Of a stretch of DNA of 15,118 nucleotides, positions 1,386-14,974 are shown piece by piece (the stretch's first letter is position 1; every line of letters starts with the position of its first letter). The stretch lies in the UHGV virus genome UHGV-2163177; one strand, given 5' to 3'. This DNA comes from a virus. The notes beneath the pieces were generated by a model. The model worked only from the letters and a program-made list of their open reading frames with translations. It ran no database searches and was not told the origin of the DNA. Made by a program: the position numbers and the translations under genes.

Positions 1386-1406
1386 GTTACTCAATATTCT
1401 GAATCT
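1386..1406. repeat. attL core: 21-bp direct repeat gttactcaatattctgaatct
   Basis: Identical 21-mer at 14954..14974; identity breaks on both sides. The core is followed by its own inverted copy (ttactcaatat 1387-1397 / atattgagtaa 1409-1419). Confidence 0.75.
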
Positions 1407-4075: not shown

Positions 4076-4341
4076 TTGACACTTTCCAGCTTAAGACCTT
4101 AACAAACCTTAACATCGCAGGTTGACACACTTGACACTTTTTCGCGAAAAACCTTAACAAAACTTAACCACCCCTGGCATTTCTAAGCATGGCAACTTGA
4201 CACTTTTCGCGATTTTTTCGGTTTTTTGACGTGGTGAATATGGTACAAGGCCAGTAATGGCGCGGCTTCTAGCGAGGTTGACACTTTTTCGCGTTCAGAG
4301 TGTAAAGTGTCAACCTGGCAAGCTGCTCAACTTGACACTTT
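4076..4341. repeat. Iteron array: five direct copies plus one truncated and one inverted copy of TTGACAC(TTT), several extended to TTGACACTTTTTCGCG, interleaved with ACCTTAACA-type repeats
   Basis: Full copies start at 4076, 4131, 4197, 4278, 4332; truncated ttgacac at 4122; inverted copy at 4305-4315; ccttaaca repeats at 4095-4118 and 4149-4170. Lies between the small ORF and the HTH gene. Confidence 0.8.
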
Positions 4342-4347
4342 TTGATG

Positions 4348-4875
4348 TCATTGATGGTCTGATTTTTCCCATTCAGCCAGGGCGTTTAGCCCGGCTTCAC
4401 TCCATGATTCCAGTTCATCGGGATAATCACCTGCAACATAGCAGAGTTCGCAACGCAGCATACGAATTGCCAGCCTGGCATTACCTCGCAAATTGTATTT
4501 TTCAAAGTAATGCTGCCCTTCATCATCCTCAAGGCAGATAGCACCATCATCAAGAAAGTGCACTTCCCAGCCTAATTCCCCGGCTGCATACAGCACACGC
4601 TGCTGTATGTCATCGTCCGTTACTGGCGAAGGAATTTTACCGTCTCTGGCCTTAACTGCTTTCCAGAACTCGCCCCACGTCATTTCCAGCGTTCTTTCTG
4701 GCCACATTTCAGAAACGGTGTCTTTCCCTTGTGCCGGTGGGCTGTTCCGCTGCTCTGTCGCCTCCACATCAATTTTTTTGCCAGACATGATCACTTCGCC
4801 TTTCTCGATCCAGTCGTAAACTGTCTGGCGGCTTACGCCTTTGTATTTGGCGTATTCGGCTTTACTCATCAACAT
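4348..4875 (-). CDS. Putative HTH DNA-binding protein, 175 aa (N-terminal KYKGVSRQTVYDWIEKGEV helix-turn-helix)
   Basis: ORF 4348..4884; start placed at the ATG with GAGGTGA SD 5 nt upstream (the track start is a GTG three codons earlier). Confidence 0.65.
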   Translation of the reverse strand: MLMSKAEYAKYKGVSRQTVYDWIEKGEVIMSGKKIDVEATEQRNSPPAQGKDTVSEMWPERTLEMTWGEFWKAVKARDGKIPSPVTDDDIQQRVLYAAGELGWEVHFLDDGAICLEDDEGQHYFEKYNLRGNARLAIRMLRCELCYVAGDYPDELESWSEAGLNALAEWEKSDHQ

Positions 4876-4974
4876 GTAGCTCACCTCATGCGTATACGAT
4901 AAAAAATAATTTCATGCGGAAAGGGAATGCGTTGTGGGTATGGAGGAAAGGGGCAATAACCGCCCCTTACTGAT

Positions 4975-5247
4975 TCAGTTGCGCCAGGATGGCTGGCTAA
5001 GCGTGGTTTTCATTACATCATTGACGACCTGTTTTACGATTTCTGTGTTGGCAGTCGTGCTTTCAACATCAACAAAGCCATAATCGCCAATTTCCACCGT
5101 CAGGGATTCCAGTTTCTTCCCTAGAGCATCAGGCAACTCTCCACTGAACCGGTGCTGAAGATTTTCCACCAGCAACGCCCTGAATGCCTCGCTGTTCTCT
5201 TTTTTCTGCCATAGCTGGCGTTTATCCACTCTGATATTTAATTTCAC
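4975..5247 (-). CDS. Hypothetical protein, 90 aa
   Basis: GTG start overlapping the stop of the upstream gene (GTGA), preceded by AGAGGTGA SD. Confidence 0.5.
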   Translation of the reverse strand: MKLNIRVDKRQLWQKKENSEAFRALLVENLQHRFSGELPDALGKKLESLTVEIGDYGFVDVESTTANTEIVKQVVNDVMKTTLSQPSWRN

Positions 5248-5411
5248 AGTCTCACCTCTTTAAGTGCCTTATCCATCAGTTGCCGGGCGATAACATGAAT
5301 CGACGGTGCCACACCAAGCACAGATTTCTGACGCTCTTCGTCCTGGATGCGTTGCAGGGCTTCGATCTGCCTCCGGGAAAGTAAAACTGGCTTTACTCCG
5401 TGACCTTTCAT
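5244..5411 (-). CDS. Hypothetical small protein, 55 aa (MKGHGVKPVLLSRRQIEALQR...), possible small regulator
   Basis: Internal ATG of ORF 5244..5480 with GGGAG SD 7 nt upstream; the longer N-terminal extension has no SD. Confidence 0.45.
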   Translation of the reverse strand: MKGHGVKPVLLSRRQIEALQRIQDEERQKSVLGVAPSIHVIARQLMDKALKEVRL

Positions 5412-5521
5412 GATTTTTCTCCCGAATAATAACAACCACAACAATTGCACAAAATGAAATGATAGCAATAAATGTTGCAATTAATGAAACACAATAAGGC
5501 CGGGAAAAATCCCGGCCTCCG

Positions 5522-5809
5522 TCACTGACTGCAATTTTTCGATCCAGGGTATTTCCTGAATGCCTTACCATTGGGCTGATGTAATCCCATTCCGGCATGT
5601 GCCCGGCTGATGGTTTCGCGCATCTCCCCGAAATTATCCTGCCTTGCTGGTGGGCGTGCTGCCTTGTGGATACATTCCGCGCGACGTTTTGCCGCCTGTT
5701 CCCGTGCCTTGTCATCATTCGCCAGCATAATGACCTCAGCCCACCGCGCCGCCGCTCTCCGGTACAGACCACGCGCTTCCAGTGCTTCCGCTTTGCTGTC
5801 GTGAATCAT
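5522..5809 (-). CDS. PerC-family transcriptional regulator-like protein, 95 aa
   Basis: N-terminal AEALEARGLYRRAAARWAEV resembles the PerC/Pch family signature (from memory); start overlaps the stop of the upstream ProQ/FinO-like gene (ATGA). Confidence 0.55.
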   Translation of the reverse strand: MIHDSKAEALEARGLYRRAAARWAEVIMLANDDKAREQAAKRRAECIHKAARPPARQDNFGEMRETISRAHAGMGLHQPNGKAFRKYPGSKNCSQ

Positions 5810-6336
5810 GCGCTTGTTTTCTCCTTTGCTGCCCGGCGCTGACGTTTGCGCTTCTCATTCAGCGCCACCAGCCGCGTTTCTGCGTCCTGTTGTTCCTGTG
5901 GTGTCACCTCGCCGCACGGCTGGCCTTTCAGGTCGTAACGCGCCCCACCAGCAACCAGGGCGCGGTAATAGCGCGGAGACTGCGCATAAGATGCCAGCGT
6001 CGCACGTAATGCCCCTGGCCCAAATGCCAGCCCCCTGACGGCGAGATCCTGCATCAGGTCGTCGAATATCCCCACCTTAAGCGGCTTCGGTGCTTCCCGG
6101 CTGAATAAGTCAGGCCACAACTCAGTGAGGCGGTTAACGCGCCTGCGGTTTTTGCGCTGGCGTTTGGTCATATGCCGCCACGGTGTCGCCCCTGTGGGCT
6201 TCTGCTGCGCGTTCTGATTACCGGGCATCACTTTATATGCCGATGTGGTTTTATCCTGCTGTTGCGTCTCCTGTACCATTTTTGTGGCATACCGTAATTT
6301 CTGTTGATGGTCAGCTTTTCCATGTGTACTTTTCAT
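5806..6336 (-). CDS. ProQ/FinO-family RNA-binding protein, up to 176 aa (start uncertain)
   Basis: LTELWPDLF...KPLKVGIFDDL...LRATLASYAQSPRYYRAL...RYDLKGQPCGE matches the conserved ProQ/FinO N-terminal domain pattern. None of the candidate ATGs has a strong SD. Confidence 0.75.
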   Translation of the reverse strand: MKSTHGKADHQQKLRYATKMVQETQQQDKTTSAYKVMPGNQNAQQKPTGATPWRHMTKRQRKNRRRVNRLTELWPDLFSREAPKPLKVGIFDDLMQDLAVRGLAFGPGALRATLASYAQSPRYYRALVAGGARYDLKGQPCGEVTPQEQQDAETRLVALNEKRKRQRRAAKEKTSA

Positions 6337-6415
6337 CGATATTATCCGTATTATCGTCGTTCCTTTTGATGGCTTATTTCTATAGAAATTTCTTTATTGC
6401 TTATTGCCCAGATAA

Positions 6416-6742
6416 TTAACTGACTATTAGTGCTTTAATACTCAGGTACGCAGAAAGAATAACACCAATAAAAGAAGGGTACAGCAGAATCCCAAACAAA
6501 AACTTCATGTACTTATGTTTTCCTGTCACTTCGTTAATAACAGATATTATACTCAACATACATAATGCAATACTTATAGTTGCAATAAATGCAATAGTAA
6601 GCAAGATGAAATATCTTACACCTGTTTGAGAAGATAAATTTGCAATTATACCTATCATAACGAGACTCTGTATAATCCCGAAAGACAAAGCACCAGAAGA
6701 CTTTTCCACTATTTCACTAAATTTCTTCACAAAGTAAATCAT
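6416..6742 (-). CDS. Small hydrophobic membrane protein, 108 aa, about 3 predicted TM segments, AT-rich
   Basis: ATG at 6742 with AAGGTGA SD 6 nt upstream; hydrophobic stretches throughout; visibly lower GC than flanking genes. Confidence 0.6.
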   Translation of the reverse strand: MIYFVKKFSEIVEKSSGALSFGIIQSLVMIGIIANLSSQTGVRYFILLTIAFIATISIALCMLSIISVINEVTGKHKYMKFLFGILLYPSFIGVILSAYLSIKALIVS

Positions 6743-6819
6743 ATATATCACCTTTATATAACGCTATGCTAAGGTTTATTTATACGATATCCCCAAATGG
6801 TATTCCATCACCGTACGGA

Positions 6820-7038
6820 TCACTCTGCTGGCCTTTTTTGCCGCCCGGCCGCACCGTTCGCGCACTGATTACGCTGTCTGCGATAACCAGACCAGCCACG
6901 TTTCGCCGTTCCGTCATCTGCCAGGCTGCGCGGAAGGGGAACTGCCATACTCGCCATTGCCATTGGTGTTCCCTTGCTGGTGGTTTTTGAGTGCAGATCA
7001 GCCACCTGCCGCCCGTAAGCGGATATTTGTACCGTCAT
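6820..7038 (-). CDS. Hypothetical protein, 72 aa
   Basis: ATG with GGAGAG SD 9 nt upstream; same orientation as neighbours. Confidence 0.35.
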   Translation of the reverse strand: MTVQISAYGRQVADLHSKTTSKGTPMAMASMAVPLPRSLADDGTAKRGWSGYRRQRNQCANGAAGRQKRPAE

Positions 7039-7235
7039 GCTGTTTGCTCTCCGGTTTTAACGTTGATGATTGTCACCTGTTCAGCTTCGGCAATCTCCCG
7101 TTCTGTCAGCGTGGCAAAGTTTGCCGCTGCCGTTGTCATGAATGCGCTTATCAGTTCGGGATGTACTTTCGCGTATCCTTCCCCGGCGTTGCGGTCGATA
7201 ATTTTTATCGCCCCCCTCAGCCTGTGTTCTGTCAA
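7035..7235 (-). CDS. Hypothetical protein, 66 aa, start uncertain (TTG, no SD)
   Basis: ORF only; weak translation signals. Kept because the alternative plus-strand ORFs look less protein-like. Confidence 0.25.
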   Translation of the reverse strand: MTEHRLRGAIKIIDRNAGEGYAKVHPELISAFMTTAAANFATLTEREIAEAEQVTIINVKTGEQTA

Positions 7236-7324
7236 ATCAAGGGCGTGAGATTGTGTTTTTTGTGTGTTTCGTTGTCACAGCCTTTACCTCACAGCAATAA
7301 AATAAAATTTTTGCATTTTAACCC

Positions 7325-7552
7325 TTCACCTGTTCACCTTTTTCCGTTTCTCCTTTTAATTCATTGTGTTAAGGGGTGAACAGTTTCACAAAAACTATTC
7401 ACCAACTGTTCACCACTGTTCACCCTTAAAGCTCAACAAATAATCAAAAAGGTGAACAGTGAATAGTTTGATGAACAGTTCATGAATAACTGTTCACCCT
7501 ATAACCAACTGATATAGAACACATTTATTACAGGGTGAACAGTGATGAACAG
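7325..7552. repeat. P4-type 'type I' iteron array: about ten copies of TGTTCACC or close variants in both orientations; putative replication origin (ori/crr-like)
   Basis: Perfect octamers at 7331, 7407, 7417, 7491 (direct) and 7375, 7451, 7535 (inverse), plus variants tattcacc, gtgaatag, atgaacag. Immediately downstream of the helicase gene. Confidence 0.8.
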
Positions 7553-7565
7553 TTATTCCATAAGT

Positions 7566-9380
7566 TTAATTTTTGCCATCGTCATTTGTGACCGATGCAC
7601 ATGAGGGCATCCAGTCTTCTGAATCCTCTGTCAGTATCACGTTTGAACGCAAGCCATGCTTCGTTTTCCGTTTCATATACTCCCTGCCGTATTCCGCCAT
7701 TGCCCCTGGCATATCCTTACCGAAGCGTGTCAGTGTTACGGGCTTACCGAATCCGTGTGCCCTCATATACGCCAGATAGGCGTGATAGAGATACCTGCGC
7801 GGGCTGAACGGAATAATTTCAGCATTACCCACTAACAGGCCATCGCACATTACCGACGACATGAGATAGCCGCAGAAGTCCACCAGCGAATCGCCCTCGC
7901 GTTTTATCACCAAGGCTTCTTCTGATTTCTGCTGCTCATATAGCAGGCGTTTAGCTTCGTCCTGGTCAGAAAAGCGTGTAAGCAGGTGGCGAATCACTAC
8001 CGCCAGCTCTCCTTCTATTTTTTCAGCCAGCATAGGGTCACGTTCGTTCTCCGGTACAACTTCCGAAAAATTGAATATTACCCGACGACGTGATATCCCA
8101 CCGCTGCGGTCACTGAATGACATGGCGTTATTGTTCACCGCCAGCACGACCGCCTGAATGCGTGTTGAGTAGGGGGCTTTATGTTTCGGGTCGATTGCCA
8201 CCTTATCACCGCCTGTAATGGCCTTAATCCCTGCACCATCACCAGCGTAACGGGTCATATCCGGCATGATAATCAGCGAAAAGCCAACCACTAACGCACG
8301 TTCCCTGGCATCTTCCAGCGCCTTCATGCTTGCCGATACCGTGTTGGCCTTACCCGCCAGCATAGTGCAAATCTCCGCCATTACGCTTTTACCGCTTCCA
8401 CCCGGCCCCGTTACCTCAAGAAATAACTGCCAGTCGTACCGATTCGCCAGCACCATGAATAACGCCGCCAGTACGCGATCTGCCTTGCGGTCATTCTCAG
8501 CCACCGAACGGCGCAACCACTTCCAGAAATTCGGCGCATGTGTTGCCAGCGTTTCCCCCTCTGCTGGTGGGCTGAAAGGTAATTCACTGGCAATTAACAA
8601 CCAGTCGTTTTTGTTATGCTCCCGAAAATTACCAGTTCTGGTATCAAATACCCCGTTACTGAATCCAATCAGGTTACGGGCTGTATTCCCCATTACGGGC
8701 AAACTTAACTTCATGGTATCGACCGCCGATTTGATGGCGTTCTGCGAATAGCTGATTTCCGCATCAATAAAAATCTGCGCCATAGCCCGCTGTAACTCTT
8801 TATCCTGTACCGGCTCCCATACAACACCGTTGTAGTGGTGAACGGTGTCAGAATCCGCATTGATTGCCAGTTCACCGCCATAATGTGCCAGGAGAACTTC
8901 GCCGCGCTGGCTTGCTCCCATCTGGTTAAGTGCCAGTGGTGTCGCGCTGTCTTCTGTTTTTTTCTTTGCCGGAAACCGGATAATCAGTCCGTCATCAATG
9001 TTTTTACGCTCACGGGCAAGGTATTCACGCCAGTTCTCACACTTCTGGCTGTGCATGCCATCAGGGTAATAATTCGCATTCTGTATACTTGCCGCCGCCA
9101 GCTTCTGACCAATTGCCTTAACCATTACAGGATCTAACTGTCCGGCTCTGAATATGCGCGCGGATGTGCGCCCATCAGGCACTATTTGCAGATTTCCGAT
9201 CTCTTTCAGTTGTTCATCAGCCAGCACAACAGGTGGCTCATTATCTCCAGCCATACGCGCATCGTGTTCCTGCCATTGTTTCGCGTGTGCCCAGGCATCA
9301 CTACCCGCGAAAATAATTACCTCTGTGTCTTTGTGTTTTATTCCGCGTGGCTGTTTTTTTACGTTCGGTGCCAGTTTCAT
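7566..9380 (-). CDS. P4-family primase/helicase-like protein, 604 aa (P4 alpha-like helicase and origin-binding region; the N-terminal primase domain appears to be missing)
   Basis: Walker A TGPGGSGKS; IKAITGGDKVAIDPKHKAPY...RRRVIFNFS matches the P4-family primase C-terminal (SF3 helicase) pattern; GGGGGG SD; start overlaps upstream stop. Confidence 0.85.
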   Translation of the reverse strand: MKLAPNVKKQPRGIKHKDTEVIIFAGSDAWAHAKQWQEHDARMAGDNEPPVVLADEQLKEIGNLQIVPDGRTSARIFRAGQLDPVMVKAIGQKLAAASIQNANYYPDGMHSQKCENWREYLARERKNIDDGLIIRFPAKKKTEDSATPLALNQMGASQRGEVLLAHYGGELAINADSDTVHHYNGVVWEPVQDKELQRAMAQIFIDAEISYSQNAIKSAVDTMKLSLPVMGNTARNLIGFSNGVFDTRTGNFREHNKNDWLLIASELPFSPPAEGETLATHAPNFWKWLRRSVAENDRKADRVLAALFMVLANRYDWQLFLEVTGPGGSGKSVMAEICTMLAGKANTVSASMKALEDARERALVVGFSLIIMPDMTRYAGDGAGIKAITGGDKVAIDPKHKAPYSTRIQAVVLAVNNNAMSFSDRSGGISRRRVIFNFSEVVPENERDPMLAEKIEGELAVVIRHLLTRFSDQDEAKRLLYEQQKSEEALVIKREGDSLVDFCGYLMSSVMCDGLLVGNAEIIPFSPRRYLYHAYLAYMRAHGFGKPVTLTRFGKDMPGAMAEYGREYMKRKTKHGLRSNVILTEDSEDWMPSCASVTNDDGKN

Positions 9381-9619
9381 TTTTTCCCCCCTGCAACCAG
9401 CATTTCACGGATTTTGCGGATATAGCTTGCTGCACGTTTTTGATTTACGGCTTTATAATGGTCCACCAGCGTAAAATCACGGCGGTAGGTGATATTGCCT
9501 GGCGTAACGTGACGAATAACCACTCGTCCCCCACGTCTGGTGTCGCGGTAAATATCTCCGAGTCTGATTTCAGGCCGAGAGAGACCGCTGGCAGTAAAGC
9601 CAGAATTTTTCTTTTTCAT
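9377..9619 (-). CDS. Hypothetical protein, 80 aa
   Basis: ORF in the operon; its stop overlaps the helicase start codon. Confidence 0.45.
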   Translation of the reverse strand: MKKKNSGFTASGLSRPEIRLGDIYRDTRRGGRVVIRHVTPGNITYRRDFTLVDHYKAVNQKRAASYIRKIREMLVAGGKK

Positions 9620-9623
9620 GGTT

Positions 9624-9824
9624 TTATTTTCCTGTCAGCAGTTCCGGTTTTATTTCCGCACGAATACAGAGTTCAGAAAAAAATTCAGGAGAACCAACAA
9701 TCTCATTACTTTTCAGTCGGCATTGTGATTTCACTTTCCCTTTATCCAGGTAAACCAGTACGCGTCCGGTGAAATCATCTGGCACATTAAGCACTACGGG
9801 TACATGCGCTTCATGATTATGCAT
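9624..9824 (-). CDS. Hypothetical protein, 66 aa
   Basis: ATG with GGAGG SD; overlaps the end of the upstream gene by 8 nt. Confidence 0.5.
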   Translation of the reverse strand: MHNHEAHVPVVLNVPDDFTGRVLVYLDKGKVKSQCRLKSNEIVGSPEFFSELCIRAEIKPELLTGK

Positions 9825-11462: not shown

Positions 11463-12263
11463 TTACACATGGCTGTTTTCCTCCATGCGACGGGCTAACC
11501 AACGCTGCGAAAGGCGAATTAATTCCGCTTTCCGCTGGTGGTAGTCCTGGCCTAACTCAATCAGCGTGATATTGCTCTGCTCAAGGTAAGAAAGGTGCTC
11601 AAGCTGCAACGTGCTCATGTGGTCGCGTGGTTCGCCTGTAATGCCGTTCGCCTGTGCCCACTGTTTTGCAGTCATGCCACCCAGCACGATACGCGCCAGC
11701 ATATTGGCTTCCGTGGTGTAGTGGTGCTGGAACGTGTTTTTACCCAGTTCAGCCCGGTACGCCTCCAGCGCGGCACACATCGGCTTAAAGTAGCTGGCAA
11801 CGGTGATACGGGCTTTCAGTTCCCGGCGTAACGCTGCGGAACGCACTGGCGCTACCTTGTGTAGCTCCTCCTCGCATTTGATGAAGTACTGACGAACGGC
11901 ACGGCCCTGTTCGGTGCGTTCGACCATCGCCAGTTCTTTTGCCATGTTCACGGTGATGATGTACTCAAGAGCTGTTTGCTGGCGAGATTTTGCGCTCACC
12001 GGATCGGGTCGGCTCAAATATTCAACAACCTCATAATCCACGCCTTCCGTGAAGCCGTATTCTTCAATGCGCCCCTTGATCCACGAACGGAAAACGCGCC
12101 CTACACCTAACGCCTTATGCAACGCTCTGGCACTAACAATATTGGTTTCACGCCCGCCAATAACGCCGGAAATAACCGGGATAATTTCACCAAAATTTTG
12201 CAGATTCTGGTTTTCAGGCCGAACGAAGCCCTGCCCCTGTACGGGCGTTTTTGGAAATTTCAT
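11463..12263 (-). CDS. Phage antirepressor, AntA/AntB N-terminal domain family, 266 aa
   Basis: NIVSARALHKALGVGRVFRSWIKGRIEEYGFTEGVDY matches the AntA/AntB pattern; AGGAG SD 7 nt upstream of the ATG. Confidence 0.75.
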   Translation of the reverse strand: MKFPKTPVQGQGFVRPENQNLQNFGEIIPVISGVIGGRETNIVSARALHKALGVGRVFRSWIKGRIEEYGFTEGVDYEVVEYLSRPDPVSAKSRQQTALEYIITVNMAKELAMVERTEQGRAVRQYFIKCEEELHKVAPVRSAALRRELKARITVASYFKPMCAALEAYRAELGKNTFQHHYTTEANMLARIVLGGMTAKQWAQANGITGEPRDHMSTLQLEHLSYLEQSNITLIELGQDYHQRKAELIRLSQRWLARRMEENSHV

Positions 12264-12342: not shown

Positions 12343-12561
12343 TCAGGCTGATGTGTTTCGGCGTTCTTCCAGCCAGCGATTAATCTCTACCGCATCGAAT
12401 GCAGTGCTTTTCTCACCCAGTTTGATGGGCTTAGGCATCTTCCCGCTACGTACCCAACGATCGAGCGTTGATAAGCTGGTACCCAGCAATTCAGCCAGGC
12501 GATAGCGGCGGATATAGCCAGTTGCAGGGATTGCGGTTTGAAGTATTGGTTGGTTTTTCAT
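12343..12561 (-). CDS. AlpA-family transcriptional regulator/excisionase-like protein, 72 aa (start may be 12570)
   Basis: YIRRYRLAELLGTSLSTLDRWVRSGKMPKPIKLGEKSTAFDAVEINRWL is the typical AlpA/Vis HTH pattern; the N-terminal extension in the ORF track is unlikely. Confidence 0.7.
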   Translation of the reverse strand: MKNQPILQTAIPATGYIRRYRLAELLGTSLSTLDRWVRSGKMPKPIKLGEKSTAFDAVEINRWLEERRNTSA

Positions 12562-12673
12562 ATGCCCCATTACCTTTGTTGTTGGTTTGTGATTTGTAAT
12601 AGGGGCATTAAATAACAAATGAAATGATGTGTGTGTGAGTTTTAGAAAAAACACTGTGACTTTTCTTATTTCA

Positions 12674-13512: not shown

Positions 13513-14766
13513 TTATTTATTAGATTGCGTGATGTCAGAACATATCATGTTTTCTAAATTCACCAGCAAATCAGTCCATTGTGCTAGTGCCGCTTTGCGC
13601 TCATCAAAATATTGATGGCGGTTATAAATGCCCTCTACGCCTTTTATGCGGTGGTTAAGGCATCGTTCAGCAACGATCGGGTCAACTCCCAATGCTGCTA
13701 AATGTGTTCGTGCTGTTCGCCGGAAGTCGTGAATTGTAAAGTTGGGGACGTTCGGCATTTCTGCTCTGACTTTTGCCAATGCAACAGGAAGGGTGCTTTC
13801 CTGGATGTGAGGGATCATTCTGTGCTGCATTTTTCTGGCAGGTAATACCCATGCGCTATTGCATGAAAATGTATGCAATTCTCGCAACCATTCTATAGCC
13901 GCTGGTGGCAATGGTATGTCGATAGCATCACCATTTTTAGTTCGTTGTTCTGGTAGATGCCAAATCGCGCCATCTAAGTCGAATTCATCCCACTTGGCGG
14001 CGCATAATTCCATTTTTCTGACACACAACGCCAGGAGCAACTTAAAGGTTAATTCGTTCTGGCGGCTGAATCCTTTGGCTTTACGCATTGCCTGAAAAAA
14101 TTGGATTAATTCGTCCCGGTTCAGCCAACGATCACGAGATAATTCTTTCCCACCAGCATCTGAAACTTCGAAAGCTGAGCAGGGGTTAACTTCCAAAGCA
14201 AGGCGTTTAATACCGTAGTCAAATATGCGACGTGTCCAGCGAAGAACGTCAGTAGCAATTGTTGGAGCGCCTCTATCAACAATACTTTTAAGCATAGCAT
14301 CAATATGGCGTGGTTTTACATCTTCAACCTTCATGTGGCCTATGGCTGGATTTATGTCTTTATCAATGCGCCTACGGAGAATATCTGGGTGTTTCCACCG
14401 GGGAAGTATTTGCCGTTCAAAGTATTCGGCGGCAAGTTCAGAAACGTGCAGCGCGTTTTTTTCGGCTTCTATTTTTGCCAGTGCTTCGGCTTTACGCTGC
14501 TGTTTTTCTGCGGCTACGTCATATCCCAAAGCAACTCGTGCGGAAAGTTCTTTTGCCCGTTCCCTCGCTTTTGATAACGATAATTCAGAATATGAACCAA
14601 TAAGCATGGCACGAGATTTTCCTGCTAGTTTATATCGAAACCGCCAGGTAGGGGATCTATCCACCTCTCTATACCGGAGATATAGCCCACCACCATCAGC
14701 ACGACCTTCGAAATGTTCTCCGGCTTTTATCCATGCGCGGATCTGCATATCTGTGAGTTTTGGCAT
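13513..14766 (-). CDS. int: Tyrosine integrase, P4-type (IntA/IntS-like), 417 aa
   Basis: N-terminal arm-binding-type domain (GGGLYLRYREV...WRFRYK); C-terminal catalytic region with HDFRRTARTHL and conserved Tyr region; located just inside attR. Confidence 0.9.
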   Translation of the reverse strand: MPKLTDMQIRAWIKAGEHFEGRADGGGLYLRYREVDRSPTWRFRYKLAGKSRAMLIGSYSELSLSKARERAKELSARVALGYDVAAEKQQRKAEALAKIEAEKNALHVSELAAEYFERQILPRWKHPDILRRRIDKDINPAIGHMKVEDVKPRHIDAMLKSIVDRGAPTIATDVLRWTRRIFDYGIKRLALEVNPCSAFEVSDAGGKELSRDRWLNRDELIQFFQAMRKAKGFSRQNELTFKLLLALCVRKMELCAAKWDEFDLDGAIWHLPEQRTKNGDAIDIPLPPAAIEWLRELHTFSCNSAWVLPARKMQHRMIPHIQESTLPVALAKVRAEMPNVPNFTIHDFRRTARTHLAALGVDPIVAERCLNHRIKGVEGIYNRHQYFDERKAALAQWTDLLVNLENMICSDITQSNK

Positions 14767-14953: not shown

Positions 14954-14974
14954 GTTACTCAATATTCTGAATCT
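14954..14974. repeat. attR core: 21-bp direct repeat gttactcaatattctgaatct overlapping the yicC stop codon
   Basis: Identical to 1386..1406; encodes the last yicC codons (...QIQNIE-stop) on the minus strand. Confidence 0.75.

Follow-up and report, generated by a model that had tools for sequence, protein, structure and literature searches.

A probable PICI-type rep-ori replicon with P4-type iterons and a Rep protein without a recognisable primase active site in an Escherichia coli island

The DNA analysed here (the window, by which its whole length is meant) is a stretch of 15,118 nucleotides filed as UHGV virus genome UHGV-2163177. It is 99.9% identical to the yicC-dinD interval of Escherichia coli ABU 83972 and holds a 13.6-kb island enclosed by exact 21-nt repeats, likely the att core. 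The island carries the gene of a 604-aa protein, rep (also called 'Pri-Rep'), followed directly by a cluster of short repeats, or iterons, of the octamer TGTTCACC. Judged by its genes and their order, the element is a phage-inducible chromosomal island (PICI) and not a P4-like satellite, and the region 7323-9380 probably constitutes its replicon, in which a self-loading initiator-helicase would act at a single origin and the priming would be left to the host. In this respect the module adds an ordinary case to a kind already described, that of PICI rep-ori replicons, its iteron specificity being of the P4 type; what is new, modestly, is a 'Pri-Rep' protein without a primase and the portable N-terminal domain (NTD) that it carries. 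The coordinates of the features are collected in Table 1.

An earlier note on this DNA, written from the letters alone, had described about ten octamers in both orientations directly 3' of the 604-aa gene, and the count agreed with it: 10 TGTTCACC-type octamers, seven exact and three with one mismatch, lie within 221 bp (7331-7551), five on each strand. The exact copies were located at 7331+, 7375-, 7407+, 7417+, 7451-, 7491+ and 7534-, those with one mismatch at 7396+ (TATTCACC), 7470- and 7544- (TGTTCATC), and two more degenerate copies, with two mismatches, at 7323+ and 7458-; the end of the last iteron is 14 bp from the rep stop codon. The chance level was set by dinucleotide-preserving shuffles of the whole window, which contained 12.3 +/- 3.4 matches of this type compared to the 31 found, a number reached by 0 of the 200 shuffles. 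Per 221 bp, 0.18 iterons were expected, and the Poisson probability of at least 10 is about 8e-15. A second TGTTCACC cluster was not found in the window, the remaining exact copies being isolated, at 272 and 8132. There are no DnaA boxes in 7200-7600, and the matches elsewhere in the window are not enriched. A literature search for TGTTCACC gave primer sequences only.

The iterons are arranged in opposed groups around three AT-rich spacers, 7339-7374 (69% AT), 7425-7450 (77%) and 7499-7533 (71%). The central dyad places the iterons 7396, 7407 and 7417 on the plus strand opposite 7451, 7458 and 7470 on the minus strand, across the 26-bp spacer of 77% AT, and other opposed pairs border the 69% and 71% spacers. 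An initiator gene is thus followed directly by iteron sets bordering AT-rich DNA, and the published layout of Gram-negative PICIs is of the same form: int, alpA and pri-rep, then, directly 3' of the last, an ori in which two iteron sets enclose AT-rich DNA (PMC6092414).

The Rep protein is 99.9% identical to the 'DNA primase family protein' WP_000761774 of ABU 83972. The earlier note had credited it with a Walker A motif and a P4-family helicase, had seen no obvious primase-type N-terminal region, and had called for a domain search; this search was run, and it returned D5_N and the superfamily 3 (SF3) helicase core and no complete primase domain. The Walker A sequence GPGGSGKS occupies aa 325-332 (nt 8385-8408), within DUF5906, and a double-arginine finger SRRR aa 430-433 (nt 8082-8093). 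The region aa 236-439 matches the PriRep5 helicase of the Staphylococcus aureus pathogenicity island (SaPI) SaPI5, 7OLA (E=2.7e-10). The sole NCBIfam match of Rep is the P4-family 'primase_Cterm' domain, and its 120 closest database relatives (76-100% identical) show D5_N, DUF5906 and Pox_D5 only, in 120 of 120 cases.

The C-terminal part of Rep (aa 496-592) matches PDB entry 1KA8, which is the structure of the winged helix with which P4 alpha binds its origin, with E=1.6e-23. The iterons together with the homology of this domain support the view that they are P4 alpha-type sites, and recognition of TGTTCACC by Rep is predicted on that basis. Within the winged-helix domain the stretch YLYHAYLAYM (aa 530-539, window 7764-7793) has the same residues in P4 alpha; by comparison of the sequences it is a candidate specificity determinant, and its status as the recognition helix is putative. 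The Pri-Rep of the E. coli PICI EcCICFT073 has SLYRVYLAFM where Rep and P4 alpha have YLYHAYLAYM, its iterons being TGTCTACC as against TGTTCACC.

The absence of an obvious primase region, as the earlier note had it, is borne out, yet aa 1-135 form a conserved, folded domain. Rep gave no match in Pfam to a primase family of any kind, Toprim and zinc ribbon included, even when aa 1-169 were searched alone at E<=10, whereas the same search on P4 alpha (777 aa) added Zn_Ribbon_Prim at 30-66 and Toprim_3 at 210-299. The NTD family is narrow, comprising 83 clusters (50% identity) among 1.84 billion representatives, and it has no Pfam match and no PDB match by sequence. In nearly all of the 83 clusters that contain the region, including every full-length member, the N-terminus MKxAPN stands at residue 1, and the overlap of the rep start with the stop of the DUF4222 gene recurs in the other islands examined; the start of the rep open reading frame (ORF) is therefore taken to be real.

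An AlphaFold model of the NTD, obtained from 25 diverse members (pLDDT 88, pTM 0.82), consists of strand 20-25, helix 29-44, strands 51-53 and 73-78, helix 84-96, strand 101-105 and helix 118-129. The modelled fold is weakly DnaG-Toprim-like. Foldseek searches found nothing significant in the PDB; in BFVD they found a single small protein that has not been characterised, and Toprim matches that were weak and scattered. The residues I23, A25, G26, A29, P50, L53, L58 and G80 are invariant in the family, and conservation is 90% or more at E20 and A79, no conserved acid other than E20 being present in the family. By reading of the topology, Ala-Gly pairs (A25-G26 and A79-G80) would follow strands 1 and 3, in the loops that hold the catalytic Glu and the DxD of Toprim domains, and neither the conserved Glu after strand 1 nor the DxD after strand 3 occurs in the NTD. 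Rep has the D5_N, SF3 helicase and C-terminal winged-helix origin-binding domains of the P4 alpha type and lacks the primase of that type, with its zinc ribbon and its Toprim domain with EGYATA and DxD. On sequence and model, Rep is without a recognisable primase active site. The NTD may descend from a Toprim domain that lost catalysis. No other primase was recognised among the 20 island ORFs by Pfam scan.

A weak match of the NTD to the phrog_1139 'DNA primase' profile (E=0.016) falls on profile positions that the primase region of alpha also covers. The NTD might be regarded as an unconventional, highly diverged primase, in which case Rep, like P4 alpha, would be a genuine primase-helicase and the element would be self-priming. 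We consider this unlikely: Rep has no zinc ribbon and a single Cys in aa 1-160, the only near-invariant acid is E20, Ala-Gly stands at the positions of the Toprim Glu and DxD, and 135 residues leave no room for the N-terminal RNA-polymerase subdomain of the DnaG type. Moreover, hhalign of the NTD against alpha 1-353 gave a probability of 1.9%, and the score of the local alignment with the primase region of alpha was reached by 55 of 1000 shuffles, which is not significant.

P4 alpha aligns with Rep from aa 125 onward only, at 49.9% identity; by domain the values are 38% for D5_N, 63% for SF3 and 47% for the C-terminal domain, that for the NTD not being significant. The 777 residues of alpha include the zinc ribbon and Toprim primase that the 604 residues of Rep lack, and P4 reportedly does not depend on the DnaG of its host. 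In P4 the crr (4291-4590) is located directly 3' of alpha (4636-6969, minus strand), as the iteron cluster is 3' of rep. The P4 ori iterons are annotated at 9310-9413, about 5 kb from crr, and P4 needs both regions, whereas the island has a single cluster. Both P4 sets are of the TGTTCACC type, the 'ori type 1 repeats' of the P4 annotation being the same octamer as found here.

The segment 7300-7425 aligned with both 120-bp repeats of P4 crr at 74% mean column identity, the iteron order being kept; common to them are an A/T run, two direct iterons, a pyrimidine-rich spacer TTTCTCCTTTTAATTCA and inverted iterons. This alignment and the place 3' of the gene make the cluster the positional and sequence counterpart of P4 crr, not of P4 ori, and as the island is without a second cluster, this one must serve alone. 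What had been proposed in the earlier note as a P4-type iteron origin thus stands as regards the type of site, in keeping with the 1KA8 match, but the element is a PICI and the cluster corresponds to crr and not to ori. A perfect DnaA box TTATCCACA adjoins crr in P4 (locus L002, 4281-4289) and has no counterpart at the origin in the window.

A functional comparison is provided by EcCICFT073, a PICI studied by experiment, whose Pri-Rep of 584 aa has the same succession of NTD, D5_N, SF3 and Pox_D5 and is 51% identical to Rep overall (NTD 79%, D5_N 34%, SF3 53%, C-terminal domain 34%). Its TGTCTACC iterons form a cluster directly 3' of rep, compared to TGTTCACC in the window, and the island is laid out as here, with int, alpA, Icd-like, small ORFs, DUF4222, rep, ori, ssb and perC; it differs in its att site, ycfD-phoQ, and in an intact ssb. 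The pri-ori region of EcCICFT073 keeps a temperature-sensitive plasmid in DH5alpha, and deletion of pri or of ori, the region 3' of rep, impairs (abolishes or reduces) the maintenance (PMC6092414). The short Rep architecture with downstream iterons is therefore a working helper-free replicon.

A second comparator is vB_KppS-Ant (LR881103), recorded as an induced prophage and resembling a capsid-forming PICI (cfPICI), which unlike the island has capsid, portal and terminase genes. Its short rep product (583 aa) is 74% identical to Rep, the NTD at 41%, D5_N at 85%, SF3 at 93% and the C-terminal domain at 82%, and 11 TGTTCACC-type iterons lie directly 3' of the gene in an origin collinear with that of the window. 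In an alignment guided by the repeats themselves, the iteron columns are 80% identical and the spacers 52% (Fisher P=1e-5). The rep alleles of PICIs beyond EcCICFT073 were sampled from the E. coli genome collection. One further E. coli PICI has a DUF927 + HTH_56 rep with TGCGGGTTA repeats directly 3' of it, and another an AAA_25 'RepA family' rep with CTCCCCAC repeats in the same place. The iteron sequence varies with the DNA-binding part of the adjacent Rep, which is what initiator-origin pairs should show. Pasteurella Pmp7 was dropped as a comparator, the region 3' of its short 'primase' being too short and the repeats too weak.

These comparisons bear on the possibility that the cluster is a crr-like auxiliary or regulatory site only, concerned with looping, handcuffing or copy control, and that initiation takes place elsewhere. 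Such a role would be in line with the homology to P4 crr in sequence and position, since crr is separate from the P4 rep_origin; but the 13.6-kb island has no second TGTTCACC cluster, the only iteron cluster lies directly 3' of rep in four of the four PICI rep types examined, plasmid maintenance by EcCICFT073 fell when that region was deleted, and opposed iterons around spacers of 69-77% AT are the published layout of PICI and SaPI origins. A purely auxiliary role is consequently regarded as very improbable, and the cluster is retained as the candidate origin of the island.

As the identities by domain differ with the comparator, Rep appears as a PICI-type NTD joined to motor and DNA-binding parts that belong to the clade of P4 alpha. 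The 135-aa NTD, at 64-77% identity, heads three unrelated motors in E. coli PICIs, namely D5_N/SF3, DUF927 + HTH_56 and AAA_25 'RepA family'. Each of the four PICIs studied has the DUF4222 gene upstream of the NTD-headed rep and a distinct iteron cluster downstream of it. Of 5426 complete E. coli genomes, 1681 contain DNA coding for the NTD; the proteins that begin with the domain are annotated there as 'DNA primase family', 'DUF927' or 'helicase RepA family', the DUF4222 gene adjoining in nearly all the cases listed. The PICI literature covered (including PMC6092414) regards such proteins as alleles of one another, under the names 'Pri-Rep' or 'primase-replicase', and does not analyse their domains.

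The occurrence of one NTD on three unrelated helicase classes points to modular exchange and a conserved partner. It is tempting to speculate that the NTD and DUF4222 form a portable adaptor that can be placed on any PICI motor and links it to one common partner, for which the priming machinery of the host (DnaG, SSB or the primosome) is the most plausible candidate, and that the domain is possibly a former Toprim; this is a tentative proposal, to which we give rather less than an even chance. If it were true, the 'Pri-Rep' proteins of E. coli PICIs would be primase recruiters and not primases.

The following mode of action is envisaged for the replicon. The C-terminal winged helix of Rep would bind the TGTTCACC iterons, which start 14 bp past the rep stop codon, and two SF3 hexamers could assemble head to head, melt the AT-rich spacer and unwind 3'->5' outward; such a pair is possible because the iterons lie in opposed groups around AT-rich spacers. 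Rep would have lost, or would never have had, the zinc ribbon and Toprim primase of alpha, and the primers would come from the host, by DnaG through the host primosome or from a transcript. Host priming is suggested by the lack of an active site in Rep and by the helper-free replication of the EcCICFT073 module. The dependence on a helper primase that the earlier note had entertained is unlikely, as the EcCICFT073 pri-ori, of the same short architecture, works in helper-free DH5alpha. The best-supported reading of Rep would be a self-loading initiator-helicase of the SaPI Rep type.

Several points weigh against this scheme. The replicon of this island is known from sequence alone. In P4, crr is an auxiliary site needed in cis, and it is the ori region, at some distance from it, that carries the rep_origin annotation; homology to crr is therefore in itself no proof of initiation here. 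There is some decay in the island, seen in the ssb remnant and in a proQ-like gene that is frameshifted in ABU 83972, and the copy could be inactive. Finally, DnaG normally rides on DnaB, whereas Rep would be a 3'->5' SF3 helicase.

The assignment of the element rests on the whole island. From the integrase end the gene order is integrase, a 260-aa ORF, AlpA, AntA/B antirepressor, Icd-like and small ORFs, DUF4222 and rep, and after rep the iteron cluster, ssb remnant, ProQ/FinO-like gene, PerC, an HTH_17 protein and a 662-aa Schlafen/AlbA_2 protein. The annotated genes are all on the minus strand save one small YlcI/YnfO gene. The size falls in the range of about 10-15 kb of Gram-negative PICIs, an integrase and att repeats are present at a PICI-specific site, and alpA and a one-way transcription from int to the replication module were found. 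The supplement of Fillol-Salom et al. 2018 (PMC6092414) names yicC-dinD among the att sites of PICIs and enters the interval 4152946-4166644 of ABU 83972 (13.7 kb) as 'PICI?'. The features of a P4-like satellite, a bipartite ori and crr, psu-delta-sid and epsilon, were not found, no psu, delta, sid or epsilon gene appearing in Pfam scans or in the RefSeq annotation. The Pfam scan of the 20 island ORFs also recognised no phage structural or lysis genes, no terS and no capsid-morphogenesis or remodelling gene.

Table 1. Position of the features in the window and, where stated, in comparison loci
Feature	Position	Strand	Remarks
att direct repeat GTTACTCAATATTCTGAATCT, 21 bp	1386-1406	+	island end, dinD side
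Schlafen/AlbA_2 + HATPase_c_4 protein, 662 aa	1529-3517	-	att-distal island end
ProQ/FinO-like gene	5806-6336		176-aa ORF here; flagged frameshifted in ABU 83972
ssb remnant	6820-7038	-	downstream of origin; EcCICFT073 has intact ssb there
Segment homologous to one 120-bp P4 crr repeat unit	7300-7425	+	aligned with both crr repeats
Candidate origin	7323-7551	.	10 TGTTCACC-type iterons and 2 degenerate copies, inverted groups around AT-rich spacers
rep ('Pri-Rep') gene, 604 aa	7566-9380	-	NTD + D5_N + SF3 helicase + C-terminal winged-helix origin-binding domain
C-terminal winged-helix origin-binding domain, aa 495-592	7605-7898	-	Pox_D5 (Pfam, aa 495-590) and PDB 1KA8
SF3 helicase core, DUF5906, aa 324-432	8085-8411	-	Pfam
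D5_N domain, aa 161-290	8511-8900	-	Pfam, E=1.5e-13
NTD, aa 1-135	8976-9380	-	orphan alpha/beta domain; no zinc ribbon, no conserved acidic cluster
DUF4222 gene	9377-9619	-	4-bp overlap with rep start; upstream of every rep variant examined
AntA/B antirepressor-like protein	11463-12263	-	between alpA and replication genes
AlpA-family regulator	12343-12654	-	Pfam; annotated form 12343-12561
Tyrosine integrase	13513-14766	-	with arm-binding domain
att direct repeat GTTACTCAATATTCTGAATCT, identical copy	14954-14974	+	island end, int/yicC side
NTD in comparison locus L005	5242-5661
NTD in comparison locus L010	3455-3874
NTD in comparison locus L009	3446-3865

With the island in view, the question arises whether it is a decaying relic, the replicon of this copy being non-functional and the repeats and the ORF being kept by recent descent only. 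The ssb remnant 3' of the origin and the ProQ/FinO gene frameshifted in the ABU 83972 annotation would agree with this, as would the failure to recognise a capsid-remodelling or terS gene and the reserve with which Fillol-Salom et al. grade the island, 'PICI?' only (PMC6092414). However, no helicase motif is missing from the rep ORF, which is intact; of 5426 complete E. coli genomes, 583 have a match to at least 80% of the region 7200-9700, with identities as low as 80%; and the iterons are better kept than the spacers with respect to the induced, packaged vB_KppS-Ant. A relic is for these reasons thought improbable, and a working replicon remains the preferred interpretation.

Some further observations were made on the island. 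The 21-nt repeat GTTACTCAATATTCTGAATCT is unlike the 12-nt core listed for another yicC-dinD PICI (PMC6092414). The C-terminal part of the AntA/B antirepressor-like protein matches the PADLOC candidate system PDC-S22. The 662-aa Schlafen/AlbA_2 protein, whose gene contains three in-frame 21-nt tandem repeats (1886-1948) and which gave weak PADLOC matches to pAgo-associated modules, is probably anti-phage cargo. Another repeat cluster, at 4076-4340, consists of six exact copies of TTGACACTT (five plus, one minus) in 265 bp, none being present elsewhere in the window, and is located just 3' of the 178-aa HTH_17 ORF (4348-4884, minus strand). Among the loci compared it occurs only in the identical ABU 83972 island, a single isolated copy being found in L010; the cluster may serve as a packaging site or as an array of protein-binding sites or of promoters.

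The results support a common E. coli island as carrier of a standard PICI rep-ori replicon. They also indicate that the gene names 'DNA primase' and 'Pri-Rep' in E. coli PICIs are to be read with care, since a primase active site is not recognisable in the genes so named and annotation and satellite-finder profiles overstate the function. The iteron and the type of origin-binding domain are common to P4-like satellites and to this PICI, and cross-activation or competition between them in one cell is therefore conceivable. The general model is that of the SaPI Rep proteins, self-loading helicases that need no loader and whose C-terminal winged helix attaches to iterons flanking an AT-rich centre just 3' of rep (PMC9371898). 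SaPI Rep and PriRep5 (7OLA) have in common with the Rep of the window the C-terminal winged helix, an alignable SF3 core and the ori directly 3' of rep; the SaPIs differ in encoding a primase, separate or fused, in iterons of 5-6 nt, in lineage, and in their regulator, Stl.

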